From contig SVNV01000007.1 of the NCBI GenBank assembly GCA_015066705.1, positions 7,573 through 71,572 on the forward strand: a stretch of 64,000 bases of DNA, given 5' to 3'. Shown piece by piece: positions 6,763 through 50,593 of this stretch; positions within the stretch are counted from its first letter, which is position 1; each line of letters begins with the position of its first letter. Below the pieces are notes generated by a model, which was not told the origin of the DNA, made no database searches, and saw only the letters and a program-made list of their open reading frames with translations. The translations under genes were made by a program, and so were the position numbers. This DNA is from Ruminococcus sp. GTDB lineage: Bacteria > Bacillota > Clostridia > Oscillospirales > Ruminococcaceae.

Positions 6763-7878
6763 TTACTTTTTGAAAGAGAATAAACCTTTTAATTTGTTCA
6801 TCGTTCTCTTGAAGTTTATAATCGGCTTTGTGAATAGTCTTAATATCAGACAAAACGGATACAAAACCGGAATCTTCTTTATAATCGGATAAGAAAAAGC
6901 AAGCGTCCTGTAGCTTGGGAAAAGCTTTGTAAGCAGGTATTTTGCTTTTCCTTTTTCTCTGATTTCGTTGTGTGTACTTGACTTAACTGTGCCAAAAGCT
7001 CCGCCCTTGTAGACGTATTCAGCCATTTCATCAAAGCTGTTATCCCATTCCTTGTCGCCAAACCACATCTGAGAAAGCAAAAGAATATCAAAGCAAAGCT
7101 TTTTGTACTGATTGTCCTTGAGAATATTACCGATTTTATCCAAATCAATTTTTTCATTGTGGTTTTTGTAGTAAAGCCAGATGTCCATAAAAGCTCTCAG
7201 ACCCACACCACCGTTTATGTAGTGCTTTGCAGCGTGTGTAAGAAGATGCAAAAAGAAGTATGTGCTGTCAAGCTCACATCTGAAGCCCTCTGTCTGCTTT
7301 GAAAAATCAAACGGGTTTTTAAGGTACTTTGCAAAATGCTTTCCGCCAAAAGTGTAATCCGAAAATAAAAATCTGTGTATTTCTACATTCATAATAGGCT
7401 TTTTGGTGTACTCATCGTGGTTTCCGGCATCAAAATGCTCGGCCTCGTAGCCATTCTGAATCATCAAGTCCCTGAGCTTGTGGTGACTGTTTTCTTCGGT
7501 GATGACGTCGATGTCGCACATGTAACGCATATCAGGAGAAGGGTAGAGCTTTTTCAGAATAATTCCCTTGAGAGGAATGTATTTGATTTTGTTTGAATTG
7601 AAGGTTTGCTCTAAAACACCGTATTCGTGAAACTGCTGTAAATCTCTTGCAATAGCCTTGTCACGGTCCTGACGCCAGATTTTCAGAATGTTATCTGACG
7701 GCTTGCTTCCAAGCTGTTCAATTCCGTAAAAAACCATTCCCGAAACGTGATGGAATTTCGATTTTTTGTATATCCCCTCAAAGGTCAGCCCCTCGGGTAA
7801 TTCCTCGGGCTTTTCACCTCTGAGCACCCTTTTCAGAAGGGAAGTTATATATTGGAATTCCGATAAATTGACATTCAT
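6763..7878 (-). CDS. Nucleotidyltransferase-family protein (NTP_transf_5 type, as found in RRE/kinase-associated peptide clusters)
   Basis: 371-aa ORF. Pol-beta-like motif IPLKGIILKKLYPSPDMRYMCDIDVI, then EIHRFLF and GGVGLRAFMDIW. Last gene of the pqqD-peptidase operon. Confidence 0.7.
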   Translation of the reverse strand: MNVNLSEFQYITSLLKRVLRGEKPEELPEGLTFEGIYKKSKFHHVSGMVFYGIEQLGSKPSDNILKIWRQDRDKAIARDLQQFHEYGVLEQTFNSNKIKYIPLKGIILKKLYPSPDMRYMCDIDVITEENSHHKLRDLMIQNGYEAEHFDAGNHDEYTKKPIMNVEIHRFLFSDYTFGGKHFAKYLKNPFDFSKQTEGFRCELDSTYFFLHLLTHAAKHYINGGVGLRAFMDIWLYYKNHNEKIDLDKIGNILKDNQYKKLCFDILLLSQMWFGDKEWDNSFDEMAEYVYKGGAFGTVKSSTHNEIREKGKAKYLLTKLFPSYRTLAFSYPIIKKIPVLYPFCLILRLFTKPIINFKRTMNKLKGLFSFKK

Positions 7879-7896
7879 AAAATGCTGTACTCCCGG

Positions 7897-8343
7897 TTAT
7901 TTTTTTAATATTCTTCTCAGCTTGAAAAATACTTTTCTGATGAAAAAGGATTTCCAAAAAAGCAAATAAATTCTGTAACCGAAATTTTTCCCGGAAATCT
8001 CCTTGTCGCCTCTGAAAACTCTTTCCACAACGCCGATAATCTGTTCAGACCTGATACCTTCCTCAAGCATAACCTGATTGTCACCGCAAAGGGTGTATAA
8101 GTCACCTTTTACCTTTACAATCCTGTGTAAAACATAATGCCCGTCATCTCTAAGATAAAAAACAATGTCGTTTTTCTTCAAATCTTTTGCAGGCTTGACA
8201 AGTCCGACCGAATCCTTACCCTCTCTCAATAGTGGAAGCATACTTGTTCCTCTCGGATAAAGCCTGAATTCTCCGCCATTTTCAAGAACAAACCTTATGG
8301 TTTCGTCGTATTCGCTGAGCTTGAATCTTTCTTTTTCAGGCAA
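7897..8343 (-). CDS. S24/S26-family Ser/Lys peptidase (signal-peptidase-I/LexA-like) with C-terminal hydrophobic tail
   Basis: GTSMLPLL (catalytic Ser box) and VLHRIVKVKGD (Lys box, like the SPase I KR..G.PGD motif). TTG start; its first codons overlap the PqqD stop (TTGCCTGA). Confidence 0.7.
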   Translation of the reverse strand: MPEKERFKLSEYDETIRFVLENGGEFRLYPRGTSMLPLLREGKDSVGLVKPAKDLKKNDIVFYLRDDGHYVLHRIVKVKGDLYTLCGDNQVMLEEGIRSEQIIGVVERVFRGDKEISGKNFGYRIYLLFWKSFFIRKVFFKLRRILKK

Positions 8344-8599
8344 GTAAATCTGCCCCTTTCAGCTTGTCAATAAATTCCAGAACGTCAGCTTTTGCAGTAG
8401 CCTCGTCAACATCATAGGTTCCGGATAATTTTGTAGCAAGCTCATCAGCTTCAGCACCTTCGCTTAAAGCCTCCCACAGGAATTTTCCTACAGAATTAAG
8501 TCTGATAATTCCGTTGAAATCACGGCTAGCGCTTCCAACCGCAACAACGATTGTCTGCTCGCCGACCTGTCTGAGCATAAAGCCTTCTTTAATTTTCAT
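8336..8599 (-). CDS. PqqD-family protein (RiPP recognition element / peptide chaperone)
   Basis: ORF 8336..8626. The ATG at 8599 is preferred because an AAGGTG RBS lies 7 nt upstream. About 87 aa, with the typical pattern MLRQVGEQTIVV...LNSVGKFLWEAL.....ELATKL...YDVD...A..DVLEFIDKL (winged-helix PqqD/RRE layout). Confidence 0.8.
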   Translation of the reverse strand: MKIKEGFMLRQVGEQTIVVAVGSASRDFNGIIRLNSVGKFLWEALSEGAEADELATKLSGTYDVDEATAKADVLEFIDKLKGADLLA

Positions 8600-8635: not shown

Positions 8636-8664
8636 ATTATAAAACTTTATTAAGCAAATGTCAA
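8636..8664 (-). promoter_or_regulatory. Consensus sigma-A promoter for the pqqD-peptidase-nucleotidyltransferase operon
   Basis: The minus strand reads TTGACA-17 nt-TATAAT (-35 at 8659-8664, -10 at 8636-8641). Confidence 0.7.
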
Positions 8665-8729
8665 CTAGCGGAGTTTACAAAAAATTTACAATTATAGTTT
8701 GAAATGATGAATATTTTTGGTAAAAATAG

Positions 8730-8758
8730 TTGACATTCTGTCGTAATTGTTGTATAAT
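8730..8758 (+). promoter_or_regulatory. Consensus sigma-A promoter for the secreted-protein/precursor array
   Basis: TTGACA (8730-8735), 17 nt, TATAAT (8753-8758); 35 nt upstream of the RBS of ORF 8794. Confidence 0.7.
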
Positions 8759-8793: not shown

Positions 8794-9813
8794 ATGAAAC
8801 TCAAGAAGATTCTTTCTTCAGTTGTTGCACTCGCAATGGCTGTAACAACACTCACAGCATTTACAACTTCAGCAAATGCTAAGACAACATCAGCTAATAT
8901 TTTAGATGAAGCATTCACAATTGCAAGCTGGGATGTACCAGTGGTAGTTGCAAAGGCTGACATCACAGCAGAAGACATTGCTACTACAGGTGCTGACGCT
9001 GTAATCATCGCAGGCGATAAGGTTACAGGCGATTATTATGAATTTATGGTTCAGGCTAATGGTGTTCGTCTTTATCAGGAAAAGATTAACGGACCTTTTG
9101 AAGTAGAAGTTCCACTTTTTGGTAACTATGACCTTGAATTCACAGGTAACGCTGTAGAAATCACTTCAATCAAGTTTGTTGATTCAGATGCTAACGTATC
9201 ATTGACACGTGGTTCACAGGAAGCTGTAATCAGTGCTCCTGGTGCAAACGATACTGTACTTGCTACAGGTGTTGACCTCGGTTGGAGCGGTGCAGAAGGT
9301 ATTACTGTTTCAGGCACTCAGCTTTCAGGTTTGAGATTTGACGGTACAGAATCATTTGTATTCACATCAACAGGTACTGGTAACATTCAGATTCAGGATG
9401 GTAACTGGTCAGGCGTAATTATTGATGGCGGTATTTGGACAGCAGGTGACAAGCTTATTATTCCGATCACACAAACATATGTAGATGGTATTAATGCAAT
9501 CGGTACAGCTCCTGGCGTTGAGCTCCAGATTGTTGACTACGGTACAAAGGCTATCAGATACATCCTTAAGGTTGCTGAAGATGATGTAGATGAAATCGAA
9601 TCAGTATCACTTAAGTTCAGAAACGATTTTGATTATTCTGAAGCATTTGAAACATCAAAGTGCTACAGATCAATTAAGGCTAATGGACAGACAATTTCTG
9701 AAGATGGTTATGTATTTATCACATTTGTAGTAAATAATGTTCCTGGTAACTTCTCATTTGACGAAGCTATCTTCTCATTTGATGGTGAAAGAGCAGCAAC
9801 ACTTGTTGGTTAA
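8794..9813 (+). CDS. Secreted protein of unknown function (Sec signal peptide)
   Basis: Strong AGGAGG RBS. Signal peptide MKLKKILSSVVALAMAVTTLTAFTTSANA|K. Beta-rich, Gly/Thr/Val-rich mature part with no recognisable catalytic motif. Codon choice resembles the highly expressed tuf/fusA genes. Confidence 0.75.
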   Translation: MKLKKILSSVVALAMAVTTLTAFTTSANAKTTSANILDEAFTIASWDVPVVVAKADITAEDIATTGADAVIIAGDKVTGDYYEFMVQANGVRLYQEKINGPFEVEVPLFGNYDLEFTGNAVEITSIKFVDSDANVSLTRGSQEAVISAPGANDTVLATGVDLGWSGAEGITVSGTQLSGLRFDGTESFVFTSTGTGNIQIQDGNWSGVIIDGGIWTAGDKLIIPITQTYVDGINAIGTAPGVELQIVDYGTKAIRYILKVAEDDVDEIESVSLKFRNDFDYSEAFETSKCYRSIKANGQTISEDGYVFITFVVNNVPGNFSFDEAIFSFDGERAATLVG

Positions 9814-9862: not shown

Positions 9863-9991
9863 ATGAAGTTTGAATACATCAAGCCAGAACTCGAAATCGA
9901 GTTGTTCGAAGTTGAAGACGTTATTACTCTTTCAATCGTAAACGATGACGAAGAACAGATTCTTTTCGGAGATATCACTTGGGAAAACTAA
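9863..9991 (+). CDS. Unannotated small ORF A1 (42 aa), candidate RiPP precursor with lasso-like leader
   Basis: AAAGGAG RBS 8 nt upstream. Sequence MKFEYIKPELEIELFEVEDVITLSIVNDDEEQILFGDITWEN. The first 24 codons are paralogous to ORF A2, with 9 synonymous and 5 conservative differences. A hairpin terminator follows. Confidence 0.65.
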   Translation: MKFEYIKPELEIELFEVEDVITLSIVNDDEEQILFGDITWEN

Positions 9992-10002
9992 ATAAATGAA
10001 TC

Positions 10003-10032
10003 AAAGGCAGGCATTTTGCCTGCCTTTAATTT
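10003..10032 (+). terminator. Hairpin terminator/attenuator directly after small ORF A1
   Basis: ggcaggc-atttt-gcctgcc followed by TTTAATTT. The next gene starts 18 nt later, so the terminator is probably leaky. Confidence 0.65.
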
Positions 10033-10049
10033 ATAATAAGGTATAGTAA

Positions 10050-10502
10050 ATGAAAAAAGTAATTTGTTTTACACTCATTCTAAGCGTTTGTATGAGTGTT
10101 ATGTGTGGGTGCGATACTTCTAAAGATGAATATAAAAGTATCACCTCAAAAACCACTACAACAGTAAACAGTAGCTCAACGGATATAAATAACGAGCCTA
10201 TTGCTACTACAACTGCAAGTGTAGAAAATTCAGTAAATACATCATCAACATTGACAACAACTGTTAAAACGGAAGCTACGATAGATGATGTTATTACTAC
10301 AACTACAGCTAAAAAGATAGAGAATAAGAATACTACCACAACGACTACTAAATTGACAACCACAAATAAGCCTACAACAACTACCAAAACTACCACTTCG
10401 ACAATTACTACTACTAAAAAACAGGATAGTGGATTGGTTATTGAAGATGAAGAGGATGAAAAAGATGTTGTAATTGATTTTGGTTCAATTATCTGGAAAT
10501 AA
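10050..10502 (+). CDS. Thr-rich lipoprotein L1 (unknown function)
   Basis: Lipobox-like signal peptide (LILSVCMSVMCGC). Long T/N/K low-complexity region. C-terminal acidic motif TTTKKQDSGLVIEDEEDEKDVVIDFGSIIWK shared with L2. Confidence 0.75.
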   Translation: MKKVICFTLILSVCMSVMCGCDTSKDEYKSITSKTTTTVNSSSTDINNEPIATTTASVENSVNTSSTLTTTVKTEATIDDVITTTTAKKIENKNTTTTTTKLTTTNKPTTTTKTTTSTITTTKKQDSGLVIEDEEDEKDVVIDFGSIIWK

Positions 10503-10558
10503 TTTGTTGTGTGACACTGTTTTATATTAAAGAAAAACAACAGACGGAGGTAATCATT

Positions 10559-10696
10559 ATGAAGCTTGAATATTTTAAACCTGAGCTTGAAATCGACGTT
10601 TTTGAAATAGAAGACGTGATTACTCTCAGCAATGGCGATGCTTATGATGATGGTGATTTAAACGATAATAATAATTACGAAAATATTTTTGGTTAA
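10559..10696 (+). CDS. Unannotated small ORF A2 (45 aa), paralogue of A1, candidate RiPP precursor
   Basis: GGAGG RBS 8 nt upstream of the ATG at 10559 (internal Met of track ORF 10511..10696). Sequence MKLEYFKPELEIDVFEIEDVITLSNGDAYDDGDLNDNNNYENIFG. A hairpin terminator follows. Confidence 0.65.
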   Translation: MKLEYFKPELEIDVFEIEDVITLSNGDAYDDGDLNDNNNYENIFG

Positions 10697-10713: not shown

Positions 10714-10740
10714 AGGGCAGGTTTTTACCTGCCTTTTTTG
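10714..10740 (+). terminator. Rho-independent terminator after small ORF A2
   Basis: ggcaggt-tttt-acctgcc followed by TTTTTT. The stem sequence is related to the terminator after A1. Confidence 0.75.
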
Positions 10741-10769
10741 TTGACATAAATTGATAATAATGATATAAT
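10741..10769 (+). promoter_or_regulatory. Consensus sigma-A promoter for the L2-kinase operon
   Basis: TTGACA (10741-10746), 17 nt, TGaTATAAT (extended -10; hexamer 10764-10769). Confidence 0.7.
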
Positions 10770-10798: not shown

Positions 10799-11311
10799 AT
10801 GAAAAAAATACTTATGATTTTGTGCGTTGCTGCTATGTTTTGTATGACAGCTTGCGAAGGCGAAAAGCATACTAAGATTACATCAAAGTCAACAACTCCT
10901 GCTGAAACTACCACTAAAAAACAGGGCGGACTTGTAATTGAAGATGAATATAACGCTGACGAAGATGATGAAAATGCTATTGATTTCAATGATATTTTTA
11001 AAGATGTAAGTTATACCGATACTCCTGCAGCTACACAGCCTGTTGTCACAACAAAACCTGATGCTGACGAAAGCGATAAGCCGGATTCATCCAAAACTAC
11101 AACAACTGTAAAAAAAGATGATAAGGTAACTACAACAACTTCAAAAAAGGAAACAAATAAAACCACGACTACTACCACAAAACCATCAACAATCACCACA
11201 ACAACTACAAAGAAGCCGGTTGAATCCACAAATACAGGAAGCGGCCTTGACGTTGAAGATACAGCGCCGAACGACAACCTTGATTGGGGCCCGCTTGTTC
11301 CGATAAACTGA
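10799..11311 (+). CDS. Thr-rich lipoprotein L2 (paralogue of L1)
   Basis: Lipobox (AAMFCMTAC). The motif TTTKKQGGLVIEDEYNADEDDENAIDFNDIFK sits near the N-terminus, followed by a long T/K/P-rich region. The stop is 1 nt before the kinase ATG. Confidence 0.75.
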   Translation: MKKILMILCVAAMFCMTACEGEKHTKITSKSTTPAETTTKKQGGLVIEDEYNADEDDENAIDFNDIFKDVSYTDTPAATQPVVTTKPDADESDKPDSSKTTTTVKKDDKVTTTTSKKETNKTTTTTTKPSTITTTTTKKPVESTNTGSGLDVEDTAPNDNLDWGPLVPIN

Positions 11312-11312
11312 T

Positions 11313-12017
11313 ATGATTAGAAAATACAAAATTTGCGACTTGATAGTTGAATGTGATTTCCGCTTTGAAACTATGCTTTCACGAAGCGAGAAATTTGCAT
11401 TTGATACCGAAAAAGAGGCTGATATTACTATCGGCTATGATAAAAAACACCACGAATTTCTTTTGAAAAACGCAGAAAATTTCACAGAAAAGGATTGCGA
11501 AGTAATGTCAACGGGGAAGAAGTTTTATAATGAACTTCTGAACTTTGACGGCTTTATGCTTCATTCTTCGGCAGTTATGGTTGACGGAAAGGTTTTTCTT
11601 TTTTCTGCACCAAGCGGAACGGGGAAGTCTACCCATACAAGACAATGGCGTAAGCTTTTCGGCGAAAGAGCAGTAATCATTAACGATGATAAACCTGCAA
11701 TAAGAATTGTTGACGGTAAAATCTATGCCTATGGAACCCCTTGGAGCGGAAGCTCTGAGCTCAATAGTACCGATTTCGGAATTCTTCAGGGGATATGTGT
11801 TCTTTCCCGTAGTGAGGAAAATTATATCCGACCTCTAGACCAGAGTAAAGCGATTTTCTCCGTTTTAAATCAGACTATAAGACCTGCCGACGAAAAGAAG
11901 ATGGATAAACTTCTTGCAGTGCTTGATAAGGTAGTAAGCGGAGTGAAAATCTGGCAGATGGGCTGTAATATTTCCACTGACGCAGCACAACTTGCATATG
12001 ACGCTATGAGTAAATAA
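11313..12017 (+). CDS. HPr-kinase-like P-loop kinase (lasso-peptide kinase-like)
   Basis: LHSSAVMVDGKVFLFSAPSGTGKSTHTRQW...AVIINDD matches the HprK C-terminal domain layout (H-G/S..V...G..vL..G.SG.GKS...DD). Translationally coupled to L2. Confidence 0.75.
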   Translation: MIRKYKICDLIVECDFRFETMLSRSEKFAFDTEKEADITIGYDKKHHEFLLKNAENFTEKDCEVMSTGKKFYNELLNFDGFMLHSSAVMVDGKVFLFSAPSGTGKSTHTRQWRKLFGERAVIINDDKPAIRIVDGKIYAYGTPWSGSSELNSTDFGILQGICVLSRSEENYIRPLDQSKAIFSVLNQTIRPADEKKMDKLLAVLDKVVSGVKIWQMGCNISTDAAQLAYDAMSK

Positions 12018-12034: not shown

Positions 12035-12339
12035 TAAGGCGGATAGTTATATAGAAGTATATTATATGAATTTATCGGGGCGAAACCTTTCTGAAGAAAG
12101 GTTGTCCCCCGAACCCCCTTCCAAAGACTTTAATATTAAAATAACTATCCCCCGCTGTGCGGGGGATAGTTATTTTAAATACTGAAGTTTTAGGAAAGGA
12201 GTTTGAGGATGACTCCCCACAAGGTGGGGAGATGTCTGCGTAGCAGACAGAGGGGACAGGCGACCGTTGGGAGAACCCTTTTTCAAAAGGGTTTTCCTCA
12301 ATAAGTCCGTATAATACTTCTTTATGACCACTCACCTTA
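12035..12339 (-). mobile_element. MITE-like structured repeat, copy 1 (305 bp including flanking TA), inserted in the loop of a bidirectional terminator
   Basis: About 95% identical over shared parts to the reverse complement of 48468-48710. Imperfect 24-30 bp terminal inverted repeats (AGGTGAGTGGTCATAAAGAAGTAT / AGGCGGATAGTTATATAGAAGTAT). TA on both sides. Flanks aaagtacctaaca / tgttaggtacttt are perfect complements, i.e. a split terminator stem. Confidence 0.7.
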
Positions 12340-33825: not shown

Positions 33826-35823
33826 TTATGCTGCGAGATTGATTTCCTTGATAGTTTCACCTGAATTGATGTCTACCATTGTGAGTAAATAATCCGAAAA
33901 AATATAAACTGTGTCGTTTACATAAAGTGCTCGCCCTGCTTCGCTGCTTATCTCTATCTCAGATAAAACTTCAAAGCCATCATCTGTGTACTTGTAAATA
34001 GCGTATCTGTAATCTTCGCCATTCTTATATTCATTTCCGTTTTCGTCTACATCAATAAACCAGTCGTGACAAGCGACGTAAGGGAAACCGATAATATTCT
34101 TTTCTCCGTTTATCAGGAGATATTTGTGATTACCGCAGGCAATAGAATCAATGAAGTAGTAATATTCGTCCTCACTTATTACCACCTTTGCAATTTCACT
34201 TTGCTCACCCTTTTCGTTTTCTTCAAACATTGAAAGCTTGAGACCTGTTGTCCAGCCTGTGTTTTCATCTGCTTCATTACCGAATCCTAAAAGGAGATTA
34301 TCTCGGAATCTTCTTAAATGAGTTGAAAAACCGCTGATTTTAAGCTTATCTAAAATTACAGGATTTTCAGGGTCAGAAAGGTCTACTGTGTAAAGCGGGT
34401 CTGTCTGTCTGAAGGTAACGATGTAAGCGATGTTTCCTTCAAATTTTACAGATTTTATCTGTTCGTTTTCGCCCATACCGCCAAGTGTTGAAAGGTGCTT
34501 CATATCCTTGTCAAAAATATAAAGAGCATTGTCGCTGTCTCTGTTGGTTGCTATTCTGAAATATCCGTTAAACTCGTCGCCTGAGAACTGGTCTTTTACA
34601 AAGCCTTCAACAACTGTTCTGCCGGTGAGAGTAATGTTTTCCTTTATAGAAAATTTCGTGATATAACAGTGTCTTGAGTATCGCAGGATACCTGTTTTGT
34701 TTTCGTCACGTTTAGAAAAGTTTGACATAAGATAGATGTTGTCGTGATTGCAGTAAACCTCAGGTGAATTTGTAAATACCGTCTGAACGTCGGAGTTTTT
34801 AATATTATTTATATCAAGCTGAGAAATAACCGCATATCCCGAAAAATCAGAAGCGTCGTTTATAACAATGTTTTCAGGAGAAACAAGTTCCTTCTTGTAG
34901 TCGATAGCGTAAGTCGGAATGTAGGTTTCGGGCTCGTCTATATCACAATGAGTGAACTGGTACATTGACTTGTAAGAAATAATATAAAGCTTGTTGTTAA
35001 TCATACGGCTTGTAATGTAAGCGCCGTCCTGAGTAAAGAAGTTTTCTTTATTAAGCTCACCCTTGTCATTTATTTGATAAATTTCTGCAGAGCATATATT
35101 GTTGTTATCTTTTTTATCGGAATACATATATACCAACTTGTTCTCAACTAAAAACATCTCGGAAACCATATATTCACTTGTGTTTATAACCTGAGTTTTG
35201 CTTAATATGTCGCCTTTAAGATTTATAACGTAGATACAGTCACCGCTGAGATAATAGATGAATTTTCCGTCGGTCTTAATAACGTCAGCTTCAGCAACGC
35301 CCTCAACCTGCTGATAGGTTTCAGAAAATTCGTCTCTGTTTGCGTCATTATCACCATTAGGTGAAGTAGAGGGTGCTTCTTGTATACTCTCGTTGTGTAC
35401 CGGCGGGGTACTCAAATCTGCTTCTTCATCATCAAAATCCACACCTGACTGATAAAGGTAAAGATATTCTCTGTCGTTTATCTTGCTCAGAATGTTATAT
35501 ATTTCCTTGTAGGAAAGGGTATTTTTGTTGCTTTGAAGATTTACTACACCGTTAACACTTGGATTGTTTTCCATTTCGCTGACGAAGTTGTTTTCCGGCT
35601 TCTTGTTATTTTCACCGCTGTCGGTAATGCCGTTGTTTGTATTTGCAGAAATACCGATAATAATTGCAAAACAAGCAGCAAGTGATGTTATGCCTGAAAT
35701 AAGTCTGATTTTCTTTCTCTTTTTAGAAGCTTTGTTTTCGTTAATAAGCTTCACCATATTTTCTGGTGAGATTTTATCCGGAACAGTATATTTATCTTCC
35801 ATTTTCTTTTTGAAATCGCTCAT
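33826..35823 (-). CDS. Membrane-anchored protein with C-terminal beta-propeller domain (COG4880-like); probable anti-sigma partner of the upstream ECF sigma
   Basis: Short cytoplasmic N-terminus and a single TM. The extracytoplasmic part has the family signature AYIVTFRQTDPLYTVDLSDPENPVILDKLKISGFSTHL. Begins 16 nt after the sigma gene. Confidence 0.7.
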   Translation of the reverse strand: MSDFKKKMEDKYTVPDKISPENMVKLINENKASKKRKKIRLISGITSLAACFAIIIGISANTNNGITDSGENNKKPENNFVSEMENNPSVNGVVNLQSNKNTLSYKEIYNILSKINDREYLYLYQSGVDFDDEEADLSTPPVHNESIQEAPSTSPNGDNDANRDEFSETYQQVEGVAEADVIKTDGKFIYYLSGDCIYVINLKGDILSKTQVINTSEYMVSEMFLVENKLVYMYSDKKDNNNICSAEIYQINDKGELNKENFFTQDGAYITSRMINNKLYIISYKSMYQFTHCDIDEPETYIPTYAIDYKKELVSPENIVINDASDFSGYAVISQLDINNIKNSDVQTVFTNSPEVYCNHDNIYLMSNFSKRDENKTGILRYSRHCYITKFSIKENITLTGRTVVEGFVKDQFSGDEFNGYFRIATNRDSDNALYIFDKDMKHLSTLGGMGENEQIKSVKFEGNIAYIVTFRQTDPLYTVDLSDPENPVILDKLKISGFSTHLRRFRDNLLLGFGNEADENTGWTTGLKLSMFEENEKGEQSEIAKVVISEDEYYYFIDSIACGNHKYLLINGEKNIIGFPYVACHDWFIDVDENGNEYKNGEDYRYAIYKYTDDGFEVLSEIEISSEAGRALYVNDTVYIFSDYLLTMVDINSGETIKEINLAA

Positions 35824-35838
35824 AAAATCAATCCTTTC

Positions 35839-36360
35839 TTAAACCGTTTTGTCGCTGTAAAGAATTCTTAGTTTGTTTTTTGCACGCAAAAGATGACTTC
35901 TTACGGTGCTGGGGTTAGTGTTTGTCATTTTTGAAATTTCTTCAGATGTAAAACCGCAGACATAACATAAGCTGAACATCTGACGTTCTTTTTCCGAAAG
36001 GGTATCAAGTATTTCGTCGGATTCGATTTTAGTGATGTCAGGAAGCTCACCGTTTTTGTCGATTTCTCCTGAAACATCATCAATACTTTCTGTCTGCTTT
36101 TGATATTCAGAGTATTTTTTGGTTATTTTTCGTGTGAGAATAGTAAAAAGCCAGCTTTTGAAAAGGTCTTCATTTTTCAGCTTTTTGATTGATGCAAAAG
36201 CGTCCAGTACTGCTTCGCTTACAGCATCGCATGCGTCGTCTTCACTTCTCAGCCTTGAGAGCGCGTAGTAATACATTTCTTTGTAATAAAGAGAATATAG
36301 CTTGCCGAATGCCTCCGACGAGCCTTTTCTTGCTTCAAAAATCAGATTTTTAATGTCCAT
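35839..36360 (-). CDS. ECF-type RNA polymerase sigma-70 factor
   Basis: Region 2 (YYYALSRLRSEDDACDAVSEAVLDAF) and region 4 HTH (GFTSEEISKMTNTNPSTVRSHLLRAKNKL). Confidence 0.85.
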   Translation of the reverse strand: MDIKNLIFEARKGSSEAFGKLYSLYYKEMYYYALSRLRSEDDACDAVSEAVLDAFASIKKLKNEDLFKSWLFTILTRKITKKYSEYQKQTESIDDVSGEIDKNGELPDITKIESDEILDTLSEKERQMFSLCYVCGFTSEEISKMTNTNPSTVRSHLLRAKNKLRILYSDKTV

Positions 36361-36567: not shown

Positions 36568-38601
36568 GTGTTTTTTTGTAATTTCAAAAAAGTAACGCTT
36601 TTAATGCTGACAGCAGTGTGCTTTGTGTTTGCATGTAGCTGTGAGAAGAAAAGCGTTGAAATTATCAAGTCAAATAAAATTGAAGCCTGTCAGGATACCG
36701 AAGGCGCAAACTTCGTATCACTTGAGTGGAAACCTGTCAAGGACGCTGAAAACTATAAGATTTATGTTTTTGATGAATCAACAAGCAAGTATGAATTCTA
36801 TAAGGAAACCTCTGCCTGCTATGCAGCAGTAGGTGAGCTTTCACCTTCAACAAAATATAAGGTGAAGATTGAGGCTGACGGTAAAAATAAATCCCAGTGT
36901 GTAATAAATGTTGCTACTCAGCCTGATTCTGTGAATACTCCTGAGGTTTTGCAGAGAGGTGTAAATTCGGTAATTCTCCAATGGAATAGTGTAGATGATG
37001 TAGACGGCTATGACATTTTTGTTTATGATGATAAAAAAATGGACTATGTATATCTTGCTTCTACTAATGCGAATGTAGCCGAGGTTTTCGGACTTTCATC
37101 GGCAAAGCTTCATAAGATAGCTGTCTGTCCGTATATTCTTTCAGGGGAATATAAAGCGAGAGGCGACCTTTCATCAGTTGAAGCCTATACAGACTGTGCT
37201 TCACCGACTGATGTGAGCGTTTCTGACAGAACAAGCGAAAGCTATACAATCAAATGGAGCGAAAGCGAAAAGGCAGACGGATATGATGTTTGCGTTTATG
37301 ACCCTGAAACCAAAAGTTATTATGAGTATAAAAATAACCTGACAGAAACTCAGTTTTCTGTGTCAGGACTTAAAAACGGCGATGTTAGAAAATATATGAT
37401 TACACCGTATATGATAATAGGCGGTGAAAAATATAAAAGCTCAGACAGTGCATATGTAAATGCGGCTACACTACTTAAGGCAGTAAAGGTTACATCACAA
37501 GGATTTATAAACGGCTTGAGTGTAAAATGGACAATAAATAAGTATGCCGACGGCTATAATGTTTATTATTCAGATGCAAAAGACGGCGATTATACCTTTG
37601 TAGCCAAGGTTGATAAGACTAAAACCACATATAATATTTCGGGACTTACAAAAGAAGGAAAGTATTTTGTAAAGGTTGTACCTTTCAAAGTCAGCAGTAA
37701 TGTTACCTTTGAGGGCGAAGTGGCAATTTCCTCGGGATATGCTTATAGAAACGACCATAATGAAATTCTTTCTTCCTACAAACAGAGCTCGTCAATTACA
37801 GTGACTAATTCTGATTTTGTTGTGTCAGAAAGCAGAAAAAATCAGATTATGAACCTTATAAATAACTATAAGAGCACAAATAAGAGCTCCTTTGTAATTA
37901 TGGATATACGTTCAGGTGCGATGATTTCTTATAACGCTGACTGGTATGTACCTACTGCAAGTACAGTAAAAGCACCATATATCTGCTATGTCCTTACCGA
38001 AGAAATTGATAAGGGTAATGCTTCTATGGACGATATTCTTGTTTATAAAGAAGAATTCTACGACGCAGACGGAAGCGGAGATATACGTTTCCACGAATTC
38101 GGAAGTAAGTATACCGTTAAGGAAGTTATCGAATATATTCTATATTACAGCGACAACGTCGGATACAGAATGCTTCAGGACCATTTTGGCGTAGAAAACT
38201 ATAATAAGTGGCTTAAATCTCTTGGCTGTAAAACCTTTGTAAACGGAACTTCTACCAAGTGGGGATTTGTTTCAGCAAGAGATTCTGCAAAAATCTGGAC
38301 AGAAATTTACAGATATATGTATACAGGAAAATACGGCGATTTCTTTAAAAAGGAACTGCTTACAACAGGGTATTCACCTATAAGAAAGAATCTTGGACAC
38401 CTTTACGACGTAGCAAATAAATTCGGTGGTGCAACTGTCGGCTGGCACGACACCGGTATCGTATTCAAGGGTGACAATCCATATATTCTTATTCTTCTGA
38501 CAGACGATAGCTTTGAACACGCTGACTATAATTTCCAGAACGGAATGATAAAACAGCTCAATGCACTTCACGATGAGCTTGTAGAATTCAATAATAAATA
38601 A
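36568..38601 (+). CDS. Lipoprotein/secreted protein with FN3-like repeats and a C-terminal class-A beta-lactamase-like serine hydrolase domain
   Basis: Signal peptide with Cys (FACSC). About 4 repeats of an approximately 90-aa W-x-V-x-A-DGY module. C-terminal ASTVKAP (SxxK), YSDN (SDN) and KFGG (KTG-like) motifs. Confidence 0.7.
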   Translation: MFFCNFKKVTLLMLTAVCFVFACSCEKKSVEIIKSNKIEACQDTEGANFVSLEWKPVKDAENYKIYVFDESTSKYEFYKETSACYAAVGELSPSTKYKVKIEADGKNKSQCVINVATQPDSVNTPEVLQRGVNSVILQWNSVDDVDGYDIFVYDDKKMDYVYLASTNANVAEVFGLSSAKLHKIAVCPYILSGEYKARGDLSSVEAYTDCASPTDVSVSDRTSESYTIKWSESEKADGYDVCVYDPETKSYYEYKNNLTETQFSVSGLKNGDVRKYMITPYMIIGGEKYKSSDSAYVNAATLLKAVKVTSQGFINGLSVKWTINKYADGYNVYYSDAKDGDYTFVAKVDKTKTTYNISGLTKEGKYFVKVVPFKVSSNVTFEGEVAISSGYAYRNDHNEILSSYKQSSSITVTNSDFVVSESRKNQIMNLINNYKSTNKSSFVIMDIRSGAMISYNADWYVPTASTVKAPYICYVLTEEIDKGNASMDDILVYKEEFYDADGSGDIRFHEFGSKYTVKEVIEYILYYSDNVGYRMLQDHFGVENYNKWLKSLGCKTFVNGTSTKWGFVSARDSAKIWTEIYRYMYTGKYGDFFKKELLTTGYSPIRKNLGHLYDVANKFGGATVGWHDTGIVFKGDNPYILILLTDDSFEHADYNFQNGMIKQLNALHDELVEFNNK

Positions 38602-48800: not shown

Positions 48801-48966
48801 GTGGCTTGTGCCGGATAGGATTTTAATGTCAATCCGAGATATAGGTGTGCGGGTCCTGTGCAATGAAACGCTGTGAACCATGTCAGGCGGGGAACCGAGC
48901 AGCATTAAGCAGTTTGTTTTGTGTGACGCAGTTTCGCCTGCATACCTGTATGTCGGATTGAATTTT
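48801..48966 (+). ncRNA. ffs: Signal recognition particle RNA (4.5S/scRNA); boundaries approximate
   Basis: gggtcctgtgcaatg...tgaaccatgtcaggcggggaaccgagcagcattaag closely matches the domain IV region remembered from Bacillus subtilis scRNA (GGGTCCTGCGCAATG...TGAACCATGTCAGGTCCGGAAGGAAGCAGCATTAAG). A long closing helix (tccgagatataggtgtgcg / cgcctgcatacctgtatgtcgga) is followed by a T-run. The gene occupies the canonical position upstream of dnaX-ybaB-recR. Confidence 0.88.
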
Positions 48967-48982: not shown

Positions 48983-50593
48983 ATGTATCAGGCTTTGTAT
49001 CGTAAGTGGCGACCTATGACCTTTGACGATGTTGTGGGACAGCCTCATATTACCTCTACACTTAAAAATCAGATTAAGAATAATAAGGTTGCACACGCTT
49101 ATCTCTTTACTGGTTCAAGAGGAACAGGTAAGACAACCTGTGCAAGAATTTTTGCAAAGACAATAAACTGCCTTAACCCTAAGGACGGCTCACCTTGTCT
49201 TGAGTGTGAAATCTGTAAGGCTGCCGATAAAGGCGTTCTTAACGATATTATTGAAATTGACGCTGCTTCAAATACAGGCGTTGACGATATCAGAGAAATC
49301 CGTGATTCTGCAGCATTTCTTCCTGAAATCTGTAAGTATAAGGTTTATATCATTGACGAAGTTCATATGATTACCCCTAACGCTTTTAACGCTTTTCTTA
49401 AGATTCTTGAAGAACCACCTGCACACGTTAAATTTATTTTTGCAACAACTGAGGACCATAAGGTGCTCCCGACAATTACATCACGTTGTCAGGGCTTTAA
49501 GTTCAATAGAATCCAGACCAACGATATCGTAAAAAGACTTGAATATATCGCTTCTCAGGAGAATATCAGACTTGATTCCAATGCTGCTGCACTTGTGGCT
49601 AAGCTGTCTGACGGCGGAATGAGAGATGCACTTTCGCTTCTCGACCAGTGTGCCGCATTTTCAGGGGATATTGATGTTGAAACTGTTTCTGCTGCTGCGG
49701 GAATTGCAAACAGAGATTACCTTTTTGAGCTTCTGGAATGTGTCAGGGATAATAACCCGACGGAAGCTATTACTATTGTTGATAAGCTTTATGAAATGTC
49801 AAAGGATATGCAACAGCTTTGTGTGGAGCTTCTGACACTTATAAGAGATATGATGCTTGTAAAGGCTGTGACCGGTAAGGACGAGCTTCTTTCCTGCCTG
49901 CCTGATGAAGCTTCAAGACTGAGAGAAATTTCCGATAAGATGGATTTGGGAACTATTCTTTCAAAGCTTGATATCATTAAGGAATGTAACGAAAGACTTC
50001 CGAGAGCTAATTCAAAACGTGTTGAAATCGAAATGTGTATCGTTAAGCTTTGTAGCGATATCAGTAGATTTTCTGCACCATCAAAATCGGCTTCTGTTGA
50101 TAATGAAACGGTAAAACGTCTTGAAAACCGTATCTATAGGCTTGAAGAAATGCTCGCTAACGGCGTTTCTGTAAAGACAAAAGCTACTGTCGATGAACCT
50201 CTTGTTCCAAACCAGCAGGCACCTGTTGCGGAGCCGGTTGTGGATACTTCAAAAATTAAACAGGAACAGCTTCAACCGGTTACCGATTGGAGCGAAATTG
50301 TGGATAGAGTAATGGCTTCAAACCCTCAGGTGGGAGGATTTCTTGCAAAATCCACAGCATTCGAGTATGAGAATGTGTTCTTTATTATCGTTGATAATGA
50401 CTTTTTCCTGAAACTCTTCAAGGAGTCTGATTCGGCAAGAATTATTCAGGAGGAGCTTAAGAATTATAACGGAAAGACTTACGCTATCAGAGTTAAATCT
50501 GCTAAGAATGTGTCACCTGAGGATAGTGAAAATCCTATAAATAAGCTGATGCAGAGAGCAAAAGATGCTGATATCGTGGTTGATATACATTAA
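48983..50593 (+). CDS. dnaX: DNA polymerase III subunits gamma/tau
   Basis: Motifs YRKWRP, GSRGTGKTTCARIFAK, DEVHM and SRCQ. Confidence 0.95.
   Translation: MYQALYRKWRPMTFDDVVGQPHITSTLKNQIKNNKVAHAYLFTGSRGTGKTTCARIFAKTINCLNPKDGSPCLECEICKAADKGVLNDIIEIDAASNTGVDDIREIRDSAAFLPEICKYKVYIIDEVHMITPNAFNAFLKILEEPPAHVKFIFATTEDHKVLPTITSRCQGFKFNRIQTNDIVKRLEYIASQENIRLDSNAAALVAKLSDGGMRDALSLLDQCAAFSGDIDVETVSAAAGIANRDYLFELLECVRDNNPTEAITIVDKLYEMSKDMQQLCVELLTLIRDMMLVKAVTGKDELLSCLPDEASRLREISDKMDLGTILSKLDIIKECNERLPRANSKRVEIEMCIVKLCSDISRFSAPSKSASVDNETVKRLENRIYRLEEMLANGVSVKTKATVDEPLVPNQQAPVAEPVVDTSKIKQEQLQPVTDWSEIVDRVMASNPQVGGFLAKSTAFEYENVFFIIVDNDFFLKLFKESDSARIIQEELKNYNGKTYAIRVKSAKNVSPEDSENPINKLMQRAKDADIVVDIH

Follow-up and report, generated by a model that had tools for sequence, protein, structure and literature searches.

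Linear polyphosphorylated peptides (LPP) were defined in Bacilli in May 2026 (Popov et al., Nat Commun 2026;17:6633, PMC13381572). Their pathway comprises an archaeal/SipW-type signal-peptidase-like enzyme, LppS; a discrete recognition element (RRE) for peptides that are made on the ribosome and modified after translation (RiPPs), LppB; an HprK-like kinase, LppK; a nucleoside triphosphate (NTP)-transferase, LppN; and an MsbA-like pump, LppD (PMC13381572). In the LppA/K/B/S/D/N biosynthetic gene cluster found in Paenibacillus alginolyticus DSM5050, LppK puts one to four phosphates on Ser3 of the core of the precursor LppA, and LppS cuts LppA after Thr-1 only with LppB presenting the leader, cleavage being poor without phosphorylation; Tyr-16 and Pro-13 of LppA (YxxP) are essential to RRE binding (PMC13381572). 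The precursors follow the consensus YxxPxVLxHQxIxFET|xxS, LppN was inactive in a heterologous host, with no detectable activity on the peptide, and the final product and function of LPP are not known (PMC13381572). That work analyzed cluster 1 (Bacilli) of its sequence similarity network (SSN) only, and its main text makes no mention of Clostridia, Oscillospiraceae or lipoproteins; Supplementary Data 1 holds one Ruminococcus peptidase, SCH01704.1, in SSN cluster 9, and entries from Desulfitobacteriaceae and Anaerocolumna (cluster 4) that are RRE-linked, with the precursors given as 'ND' (PMC13381572). Here we examine a gene cluster with many of these components in a 64,000-nt stretch of Ruminococcus sp. 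DNA (assembly GCA_015066705.1, contig SVNV01000007.1, positions 7,573–71,572), referred to below as the window, and in particular its two short genes A1 and A2, whose products share a leader.

The cluster also resembles those for phosphorylated lasso peptides of the paeninodin and pseudomycoidin type (Zhu et al. 2016; Zyubko et al. 2019, PMC6993621), with which it shares the [Y/W]xxPxL RRE-binding leader, a discrete B1 (PqqD) protein, an HprK-like kinase able to put several phosphates on one Ser and, as a secondary tailoring enzyme, a PF14907 nucleotidyltransferase. It differs from them in having neither a macrolactam cyclase nor a B2 cysteine protease, in the Tyr that replaces Trp in the leader motif, in the position of the candidate target Ser, which is at the leader-core junction and not at the C-terminus, and in the lack of conservation of the ring-acceptor position. 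The original prediction for A1 and A2, made from the letters of the window, had followed the lasso comparison. Our results support it in part: the RRE-type leader and the junction Ser as kinase target appear to be right, and the lasso assignment very probably wrong.

We consider it likely that the window cluster is an Oscillospiraceae-type version of the LPP pathway and that the RiPPs derived from A1 and A2 are linear rather than lasso peptides. As in LPP clusters, and as known here from the genes, precursors with a YxxPxL motif are accompanied by four of the five LPP genes (RRE, peptidase, kinase and PF14907), and there is no cyclase. The precursor and enzyme genes are the following:

9863-9991, plus strand: precursor A1, 42 aa (MKFEYIKPELEIELFEVEDVITLSIVNDDEEQILFGDITWEN), core terminus ILFGDITWEN
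10559-10696, plus strand: precursor A2, 45 aa (MKLEYFKPELEIDVFEIEDVITLSNGDAYDDGDLNDNNNYENIFG), core terminus NNNYENIFG
8336..8599, minus strand: discrete PqqD-type RRE (LppB-like), 87 aa from the ATG at 8599; PF05402, E 7e-17
7897..8343, minus strand: SipW/archaeal-type S24/S26 signal-peptidase-like leader peptidase (LppS-like), 148 aa; PF00717, E 7e-5; TIGR02228 sigpep_I_arch, 6e-6; SipW, 4e-4
6763..7878, minus strand: NTP-transferase (LppN-like), 371 aa; PF14907 NTP_transf_5, E 5.5e-46
11313..12017, plus strand: putative HprK-like/ScmC-family P-loop kinase (LppK-like), 234 aa, P-loop SAPSGTGKST; TIGR04249 ScmC, 5e-6; HprK_rel_A, 0.01; precomputed PF27840 ScmC

The Pfam and NCBIfam scans covered all open reading frames (ORFs) of the cluster and every window ORF of at least 500 aa.

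A1 and A2 were confirmed as genuine leader-plus-core RiPP precursors, beyond what chance would give, because of the identity of their leaders, the synonymous codon changes between them, their ribosome-binding sites and terminators, the specificity of a leader hidden Markov model (HMM), and the recurrence of the leader in about 40 loci and in 141 library peptides. Both have the leader MK-x-EY-x-KPELEI-xx-FE-x-EDVITLS, with 19 of the first 24 residues identical. The corresponding DNA is identical at 53 of 72 positions, and the 14 codons that differ comprise nine synonymous and five conservative non-synonymous changes. The codon for Ser24 is TCA in A1 (9932-9934) and AGC in A2 (10628-10630), and the peptides end in Asn and Gly, respectively, just as the original prediction had read them. 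A ribosome-binding site precedes each gene and a strong intrinsic terminator follows it; A2 starts at the ATG at 10559, with a GGAGG ribosome-binding site, and the in-frame GTG at 10511 is unnecessary. In A1, the leader spans approximately residues 1 to 22/24, with the RRE motif Tyr5-x-x-Pro8-x-Leu10 and the junction Thr22-Leu23-Ser24; counted from a cut after Leu23, Y5, P8, L10 and T22 are located exactly where they had been placed (Y-19, P-16, L-14 and T-2). When all six-frame segments of the window were searched with the leader HMM, built from the homologues, A1 and A2 were retrieved with E~1e-14 and the next best segment with E=0.6.

No meaningful Pfam family was found for A1, A2 or the secreted protein and lipoproteins encoded beside them. 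The leaders of A1 and A2 show weak, sub-threshold matches to the thiazolylpeptide-type bacteriocin models TIGR03892 and NF033400 (E 0.01-0.06; 14-16 bits), centred on LEIxxFExED, which probably reflect generic leader composition. Literature searches with leader strings such as EDIITAS retrieved nothing relevant, and those on ScmC/PF14907 only noise.

A homologue search with A1 alone, using a word-based index, found only two near-identical peptides and was replaced by locus mining anchored on the peptidase and by a profile search. The peptidase has 1067 homologues at E 1e-3 or better, and 80 genome loci were fetched with the peptidase as anchor; the peptidase gene was seen again in 69 of these, a kinase gene in 50, an NTP-transferase gene in 47 and an RRE gene in at least 42. 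The leader HMM identified 42 distinct precursor genes from about 40 independent loci (loci set). In turn, a profile of A1 and A2 run against a library of 1.84 billion proteins retrieved 141 representative peptides (library set), which are biased toward A1/A2-like sequences.

Conservation of the leader, with positions counted from Tyr, is high in both sets. The Tyr itself occurs in 42/42 precursors of the loci set, where it is the alignment anchor and its count is not independent, and in 137/141 of the library set. Pro at +3 (40/42 and 138/141, respectively), Phe at +10 (41/42 and 128/141), Asp at +14 (34/42 and 135/141), Thr at +17 (33/42 and 123/141) and Ser at +19 (34/42 and 138/141) are likewise prevalent, as is an aliphatic residue at +5 (40/42 in the loci set), giving the family consensus YxKPE[ILM]EIxxFExED[VI]ITxS. 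Beyond Ser +19 the cores are hypervariable; they are short (median 19-28 aa), acidic, rich in Gly, Ser and Asn, and have an aromatic C-terminus, with an aromatic residue within the last six core positions in 34/41 peptides from the loci (28% expected) and in 107/141 from the library (43% expected). The bulky residues in the tails of A1 and A2, previously seen as potential lasso plugs, are better described as a conserved C-terminal aromatic motif, and the short acidic core with this motif is probably the functional part of the peptide.

Long repetitive cores were seen behind the same leader in L035 (L035|-|5714), P0318, P0350 and P0354, for instance a 96-aa core that consists of (NES)n repeats and terminates in FSYSNFL, so that core length evidently varies widely. 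Separately, a library match of 2202 aa (P0248) aligned 14 times, in repeated stretches, with the acidic portion of the A1/A2 profile that represents the core; this protein is probably no relative but an acidic repeat of low complexity.

The RRE of the window retains N35, Y62, D72 and F76, which correspond to LppB N33, Y60, D70 and F74, the residues contacting Tyr and Pro in the LppB-leader complex. They are kept in 41-42 of the 42 family RREs, and in the Trp-type paeninodin RRE, PbaB1, Gly and Gln stand in place of LppB N33 and D70. This is consistent with the Tyr..Pro.Leu block acting as the motif bound by a PqqD-type RRE, as the original prediction held. The RRE also gives sub-threshold matches to lasso PqqD models.

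The TTG start of the peptidase gene overlaps the RRE stop by 8 nt. Its product shows 29% identity to LppS of P. alginolyticus (E 9e-15), with S34 and H73 aligned to the catalytic S29 and H68 and invariant in 30 homologues; the family-invariant residues are S34, H73, D88 and E94. Identity is higher (42%) to Ruminococcus SCH01704.1. An AlphaFold2 model (mean confidence, pLDDT, 86) matches the folds of SpsB, LexA, UmuD and SipA, i.e., the S24/S26 fold. The enzyme is like the SipW/archaeal-type signal peptidase I that processes TasA/TapA in B. subtilis in this fold, in its Ser-His pair, and in the small or Thr residues beside the scissile bond; unlike SipW, it is small, ends in an amphipathic or hydrophobic helix and, judging from its LPP homologue, would act with the RRE on a non-Sec leader instead of serving secretion in general.

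For the kinase, an AlphaFold2 model (pLDDT 93.5) matches ATP-PEPCK and HprK/P with E about 1e-6 (Foldseek), and a comparison of its sequence with the PDB gave no matches. There are 6453 homologues, and the best NCBIfam match is ScmC. In the SynChlorMet (ScmC) and GeoRSP cassettes (TIGR04249, TIGR04352, TIGR04302), too, a peptide chaperone of the PqqD family accompanies an HprK-related protein of the ScmC family; these cassettes are built around radical SAM/SPASM enzymes, none of which occurs in the window cluster.

Beyond gene content, precursors of the window family and of LPP both begin with a YxxPx[V/L] leader, which passes through a conserved Thr...Ser junction into a hypervariable core; the RRE contact residues and the Ser/His pair of the peptidase are conserved between the two as well. 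They differ in the cores, which are short, acidic and with an aromatic end in the family, whereas those of LPP are long, basic and rich in Gly, Asn and Pro (45 aa in LppA). They also differ in the peptidase, that of the window falling with SSN cluster 9 and not with cluster 1, and in context, since the window cluster is not in a capsule locus nor beside a lasso cluster, and the Oscillospiraceae branch has additional conserved genes, which encode a secreted protein and lipoproteins.

Several observations weigh against an assignment to the LPP pathway. The window enzymes are only 23-29% identical to their LPP counterparts, and it is by analogy with the Bacilli system, at that level of identity, that we propose phosphorylation, a cleavage site and a role for the NTP-transferase. 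The third catalytic residue of LppS, D93, aligns with Glu94, which is invariant in the peptidase family. Among PDB entries, the RRE sequence is closer to the lasso RRE TbiB1 (5v1u, 1.5e-4) than to LppB (9x8z, 0.48), to which its similarity is weak; PbaB1 (9x90) matches with 3.7e-3. The kinase is putative, its assignment depending only on the fold and the P-loop, and ScmC members are uncharacterised. The second half of the leader, ..FExEDVIT-x-S, departs from that of LPP, with 17 instead of 15 positions from Tyr to Thr and two instead of three from Thr to Ser (TxS versus TxxS), and Thr22 and Ser24 are each substituted in about 20% of the homologues from genome loci. Lastly, the exporter of the LPP pathway is missing. 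A 554-aa protein with ABC_membrane and ABC_tran domains (MsbA-like) is encoded in 51/80 loci, its gene usually separating those of the peptidase and the NTP-transferase; in the window the NTP-transferase gene comes straight after the peptidase gene (7878-7897), and no ABC_membrane domain was found among ORFs of at least 500 aa. The exporter is also absent in six other loci (L007, L022, L024, L033, L035 and L045).

If the cluster works as an LPP pathway, the leader segment Y5-x-K-P8-E-L10-E-I would bind the discrete PqqD RRE as an added beta-strand, as the conserved contacts and the LppB structure suggest. The Tyr would lie in the first RRE pocket, hydrogen-bonded to D72, the Pro at a kink held by N35, and Leu10 in the second pocket. 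By analogy with LppA Ser3, its counterpart, the junction Ser24 would be phosphorylated by the HprK-fold kinase, probably several times. The RRE would then present the junction to the SipW-type Ser/His peptidase for removal of the leader; the genes for this step are present and the chemistry is presumed. The PF14907 NTP-transferase may decorate the phosphate further. Ser24 is the best candidate, and the likely, phospho-acceptor: it is conserved in 34/42 and 138/141 homologues, in agreement with its earlier proposal as the modification site, and Ser is the last residue of just 1/41 and 4/141 homologues, in agreement with the earlier view that a C-terminal Ser is not the target here.

As for the cleavage site, we favour, at roughly even chances, a cut after Thr22, with Val/Ile at P3 and Thr at P1 as in the F-E-T terminus of the LppA leader; the core would then start with L23-pS24. 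The main alternative is a cut after Ser24, which fits the -3/-1 small-residue rule (S/A/T/G in 39/41 homologues); in that case the phosphoserine would stay on the leader. The cut between Leu23 and Ser24 assumed in the original prediction draws on the rule of a Thr at -2 for B2 proteases, which is inapplicable because the leader protease here is an S24/S26 signal-peptidase-like enzyme, and we regard it as a further possible site. A cut after 'F-x-T' at +10 to +12, resembling the F-E-T of LPP, was also considered and is unlikely, with +12 being V or I in A1 and A2, and V (46), T (32) or I (27) in the 141 library homologues.

The alternative that A1 and A2 are paeninodin-type lasso precursors, cut after Leu23 and with Ser24 cyclised to Glu/Asp 7-8 by a cyclase and a B2 protease encoded elsewhere in the genome, is very unlikely. 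The Y..P.L leader, the discrete PqqD, the HprK-like kinase and PF14907 do occur in paeninodin-type clusters as well; the proposed cores of both peptides begin with Ser and, counting from it, are acidic at positions 7 and 8 (E7/E8 in A1, D7/D8 in A2), as had been pointed out; and in Bacilli LPP and lasso clusters often share a genome (PMC13381572). However, no Asn-synthetase-like macrolactam cyclase was found among the cluster ORFs or the window ORFs of at least 500 aa, and a scan for the SGGxDS PP-loop in proteins of at least 400 aa within 10 kb of the peptidase retrieved only NAD synthetases (NadE) from the 80 loci. Likewise, no B2 transglutaminase-like protease was matched by Pfam or NCBIfam in the ORFs between 4106 and 18398, smaller ORFs elsewhere in the window not having been all scanned, and the RRE is translationally coupled to an S24/S26 peptidase and not to a B2 protease. 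The acidic residues, although present in A1 and A2 as described, do not behave as a macrolactam acceptor in the family. Counted from the Ser, positions 7-9 include one in 23/41 homologues from the loci (47% expected from composition), leaving 18/41 without any, and in 98/141 from the selection-biased library set (55% expected), leaving 43/141; in many family members the first acid of the core is at positions 11-23. Among the homologues, Tyr, Pro and Thr are largely conserved, and the acidic residue at 7-9 is close to its composition rate, near the outcome that the original prediction had named as counting against itself. Paeninodin-type leaders have WxxP and a C-terminal Ser, in contrast to the YxxP and the nearly absent terminal Ser of this family. 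The lasso spacing Y-17/P-14/L-12/T-2 is not found either: the Thr is 17 positions after the Tyr, not 15, throughout the family, so that the two-residue longer spacer already perceived in A1 and A2 is real and family-wide, and holds also in relation to LPP. The claims of a macrolactam, a plug and a 'Thr -2' are therefore unsupported, because the cyclase and the B2 protease are missing and acidic residues at 7-9 are near expectation. For genome mining, this implies that a YxxPxL leader beside PqqD, an HprK-like kinase and PF14907 is not alone indicative of a lasso peptide.

Somewhat less improbable, but still unlikely, is that A1 and A2 yield secreted peptides (pheromone- or bacteriocin-like) that are unmodified apart from leader cleavage, with the RRE and the peptidase only removing the leader and the kinase and the NTP-transferase acting elsewhere, on the lipoproteins, the secreted protein or a glycan. 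The kinase is apparently transcribed with a lipoprotein from its own (consensus) promoter and not with the precursors, a lipoprotein gene lies directly upstream of the kinase gene in nine loci, the published work could detect no action of LppN on the peptide (PMC13381572), and Ser24, given the small residues found at that position, could be P1 of a signal-peptidase-type site. Against this, the precursor is the substrate of the kinase in the one relative that has been characterised, where its phosphorylation favours cleavage (PMC13381572); kinase, RRE, peptidase and precursor co-occur across most loci; and lipoproteins and other Sec substrates are exported unfolded, and are thus unlikely substrates for a cytoplasmic kinase. 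The least probable reading, to which we give practically no weight, is that of precursors of thiopeptide-type or other heterocycle-containing bacteriocins: the leader matches to thiazolylpeptide-type models that suggest it fall well short of the curated thresholds (25-30 bits), Cys is absent from the cores and Ser/Thr runs are few, and the cluster has no YcaO, dehydratase or cyclodehydratase gene. This gene content effectively refutes it.

If the Oscillospiraceae-type LPP reading is right, there is a much larger, unanalysed LPP-like branch in gut and rumen Oscillospiraceae, Ruminococcus and Lachnospiraceae: homologues number over 1000 for the peptidase and over 6000 for the ScmC-type kinase, and the distinct precursor clusters at least 141. 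Its leader grammar is sharply conserved yet different, and its cores are short enough for synthesis. Because its spacer is two residues longer, the branch is a source of natural variants with which to study how a signal-peptidase-type leader protease is kept in register by the RRE. The context of the branch, with a secreted protein and core-mimicking lipoproteins instead of capsule or lasso loci, gives a concrete hypothesis on function. These additional genes, and the transcription signals around them, are:

8794..9813, plus strand: 339-aa secreted protein, encoded at the head of the precursor operon, with signal peptide MKLKKILSSVVALAMAVTTLTAFTTSANA; no matches in Pfam or NCBIfam
10050..10502, plus strand: Thr-rich lipoprotein 1, 150 aa, tail ...GLVIEDEEDEKDVVIDFGSIIWK; lipobox, weak lipoprotein-model matches
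10799..11311, plus strand: Thr-rich lipoprotein 2, 170 aa, internal GGLVIEDEYNADEDDENAIDFNDIF, tail ...APNDNLDWGPLVPIN; stop 1 nt before the kinase start
8636..8758: divergent promoter region, TTGACA-17-TATAAT, minus at 8664-8636 and plus at 8730-8758; 12/12 consensus on both strands, consensus matches only
10741-10769, plus strand: sigma-70-type promoter, perfect TTGACA-17-TATAAT match, directly after the A2 terminator; consensus match
10003..10027, plus strand: intrinsic terminator after A1, 11-bp stem with six GC pairs, then a T-rich tail
10714..10735, plus strand: intrinsic terminator after A2, strong hairpin
6758-6739, minus strand: terminator-like hairpin after the NTP-transferase gene
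12148-12165, plus strand: terminator-like hairpin after the kinase gene

From these consensus sites, the divergent promoters would drive the RRE, peptidase and NTP-transferase genes on the minus strand and, on the plus strand, the secreted protein with A1 and lipoprotein 1 with A2, each pair then ending in a terminator; the third promoter would drive lipoprotein 2 and the kinase.

The ORF immediately upstream of the precursor encodes a secreted protein of 264-1071 aa in 31/42 precursor genes, typically within ~20 nt and on the same strand (e.g., L038:6855-9503, L044:6662-9508 and L008:12179-14320). These proteins carry a signal peptide of the type MKLKK(I/V)LS...AMAVTS, and the 339-aa protein of the window is a short example. 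The one from L008 has a Flg_new_2/InlB B-repeat domain, and the others have no Pfam match. By eye, some of them share a C-terminal stretch like YFxxVKVxNVP, and, also by eye only, the C-terminal stretch GYVFITFVVNNVP of the window protein resembles the GYFIIVKVTNVP-like stretches near the C-termini of some of these homologues.

In the window and in eight further loci, the gene directly upstream of that of the kinase codes for a lipoprotein with a W-G-x-L-type tail, and a similar one is found near the kinase in L008. Related Thr-rich lipoproteins are L012:7936-8202, L013:5107-5763, L018:6187-6705, L019:970-1458, L021:6389-6946, L030:7853-8470, L037:6046-6438 and L008:11725-11940. The tails of the kinase-linked lipoproteins consist of an acidic stretch and NWGPLVPxN (NWGPLVPIN), GWGALM, DWGPLM, TWEDIG or IDFGSIIWK, and the precursors of the lipoprotein-kinase loci end in YGDLFG, GWGDIL, GFGEMF, YDDIF, YENIFG or FGDITWEN. 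The motif [WYF][GDEN]x[LIMFV], defined after seeing the data, so that its statistics are exploratory, occurs in the last 12 residues of 9/9 lipoproteins and 13/41 precursors, versus 5% of other ORFs. In an equally exploratory comparison, the tail of lipoprotein 1 aligned with the core of A1 with z 4.1 (p about 0.002 versus shuffles).

A doubtful but specific proposal is that these genes form a three-part surface system, a ligand/receptor or anchoring/competition module, made up of a short acidic peptide, phosphorylated at the junction, whose C-terminus bears the aromatic motif [W/Y/F]-[G/D/E/N]-x-[L/I/V/M/F]; Thr-rich lipoproteins, tethered to the membrane, with the same motif at their C-termini; and the precursor-linked, apparently co-transcribed secreted protein. 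Were this so, the Oscillospiraceae branch would do more than widen the taxonomic range of LPP: the free peptide would imitate the tail of the lipoprotein, or vie with it, in binding the secreted protein or a different partner at the surface, which would be a first functional handle on the role of LPP-type peptides.

The cluster is flanked by housekeeping genes, encoding CdaA, MscL, an Mrp/ApbC-type ATPase and VanY, and an alpha-amylase, an HD protein and a flavodiiron protein; every window ORF of at least 500 aa belongs to housekeeping or other families. The closest genome relatives of the window are metagenome-assembled genomes of Oscillospiraceae from the ruminant gut, and a 120-kb JGI metagenome contig includes a stretch identical to it. 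The 64 kb yielded no tRNA genes. Unrelated to the cluster, an ECF-type sigma factor gene (35839-36360) adjoins that of a 665-aa Beta_propel (PF09826) protein on the minus strand, the pair lying within 33826-36360, and a protein with fn3 and class-A beta-lactamase-family domains is encoded at 36568-38601. A bacterial small signal recognition particle RNA (RF00169, 65.7 bits) was located at 48847-48946, directly upstream of dnaX (48983-50593).

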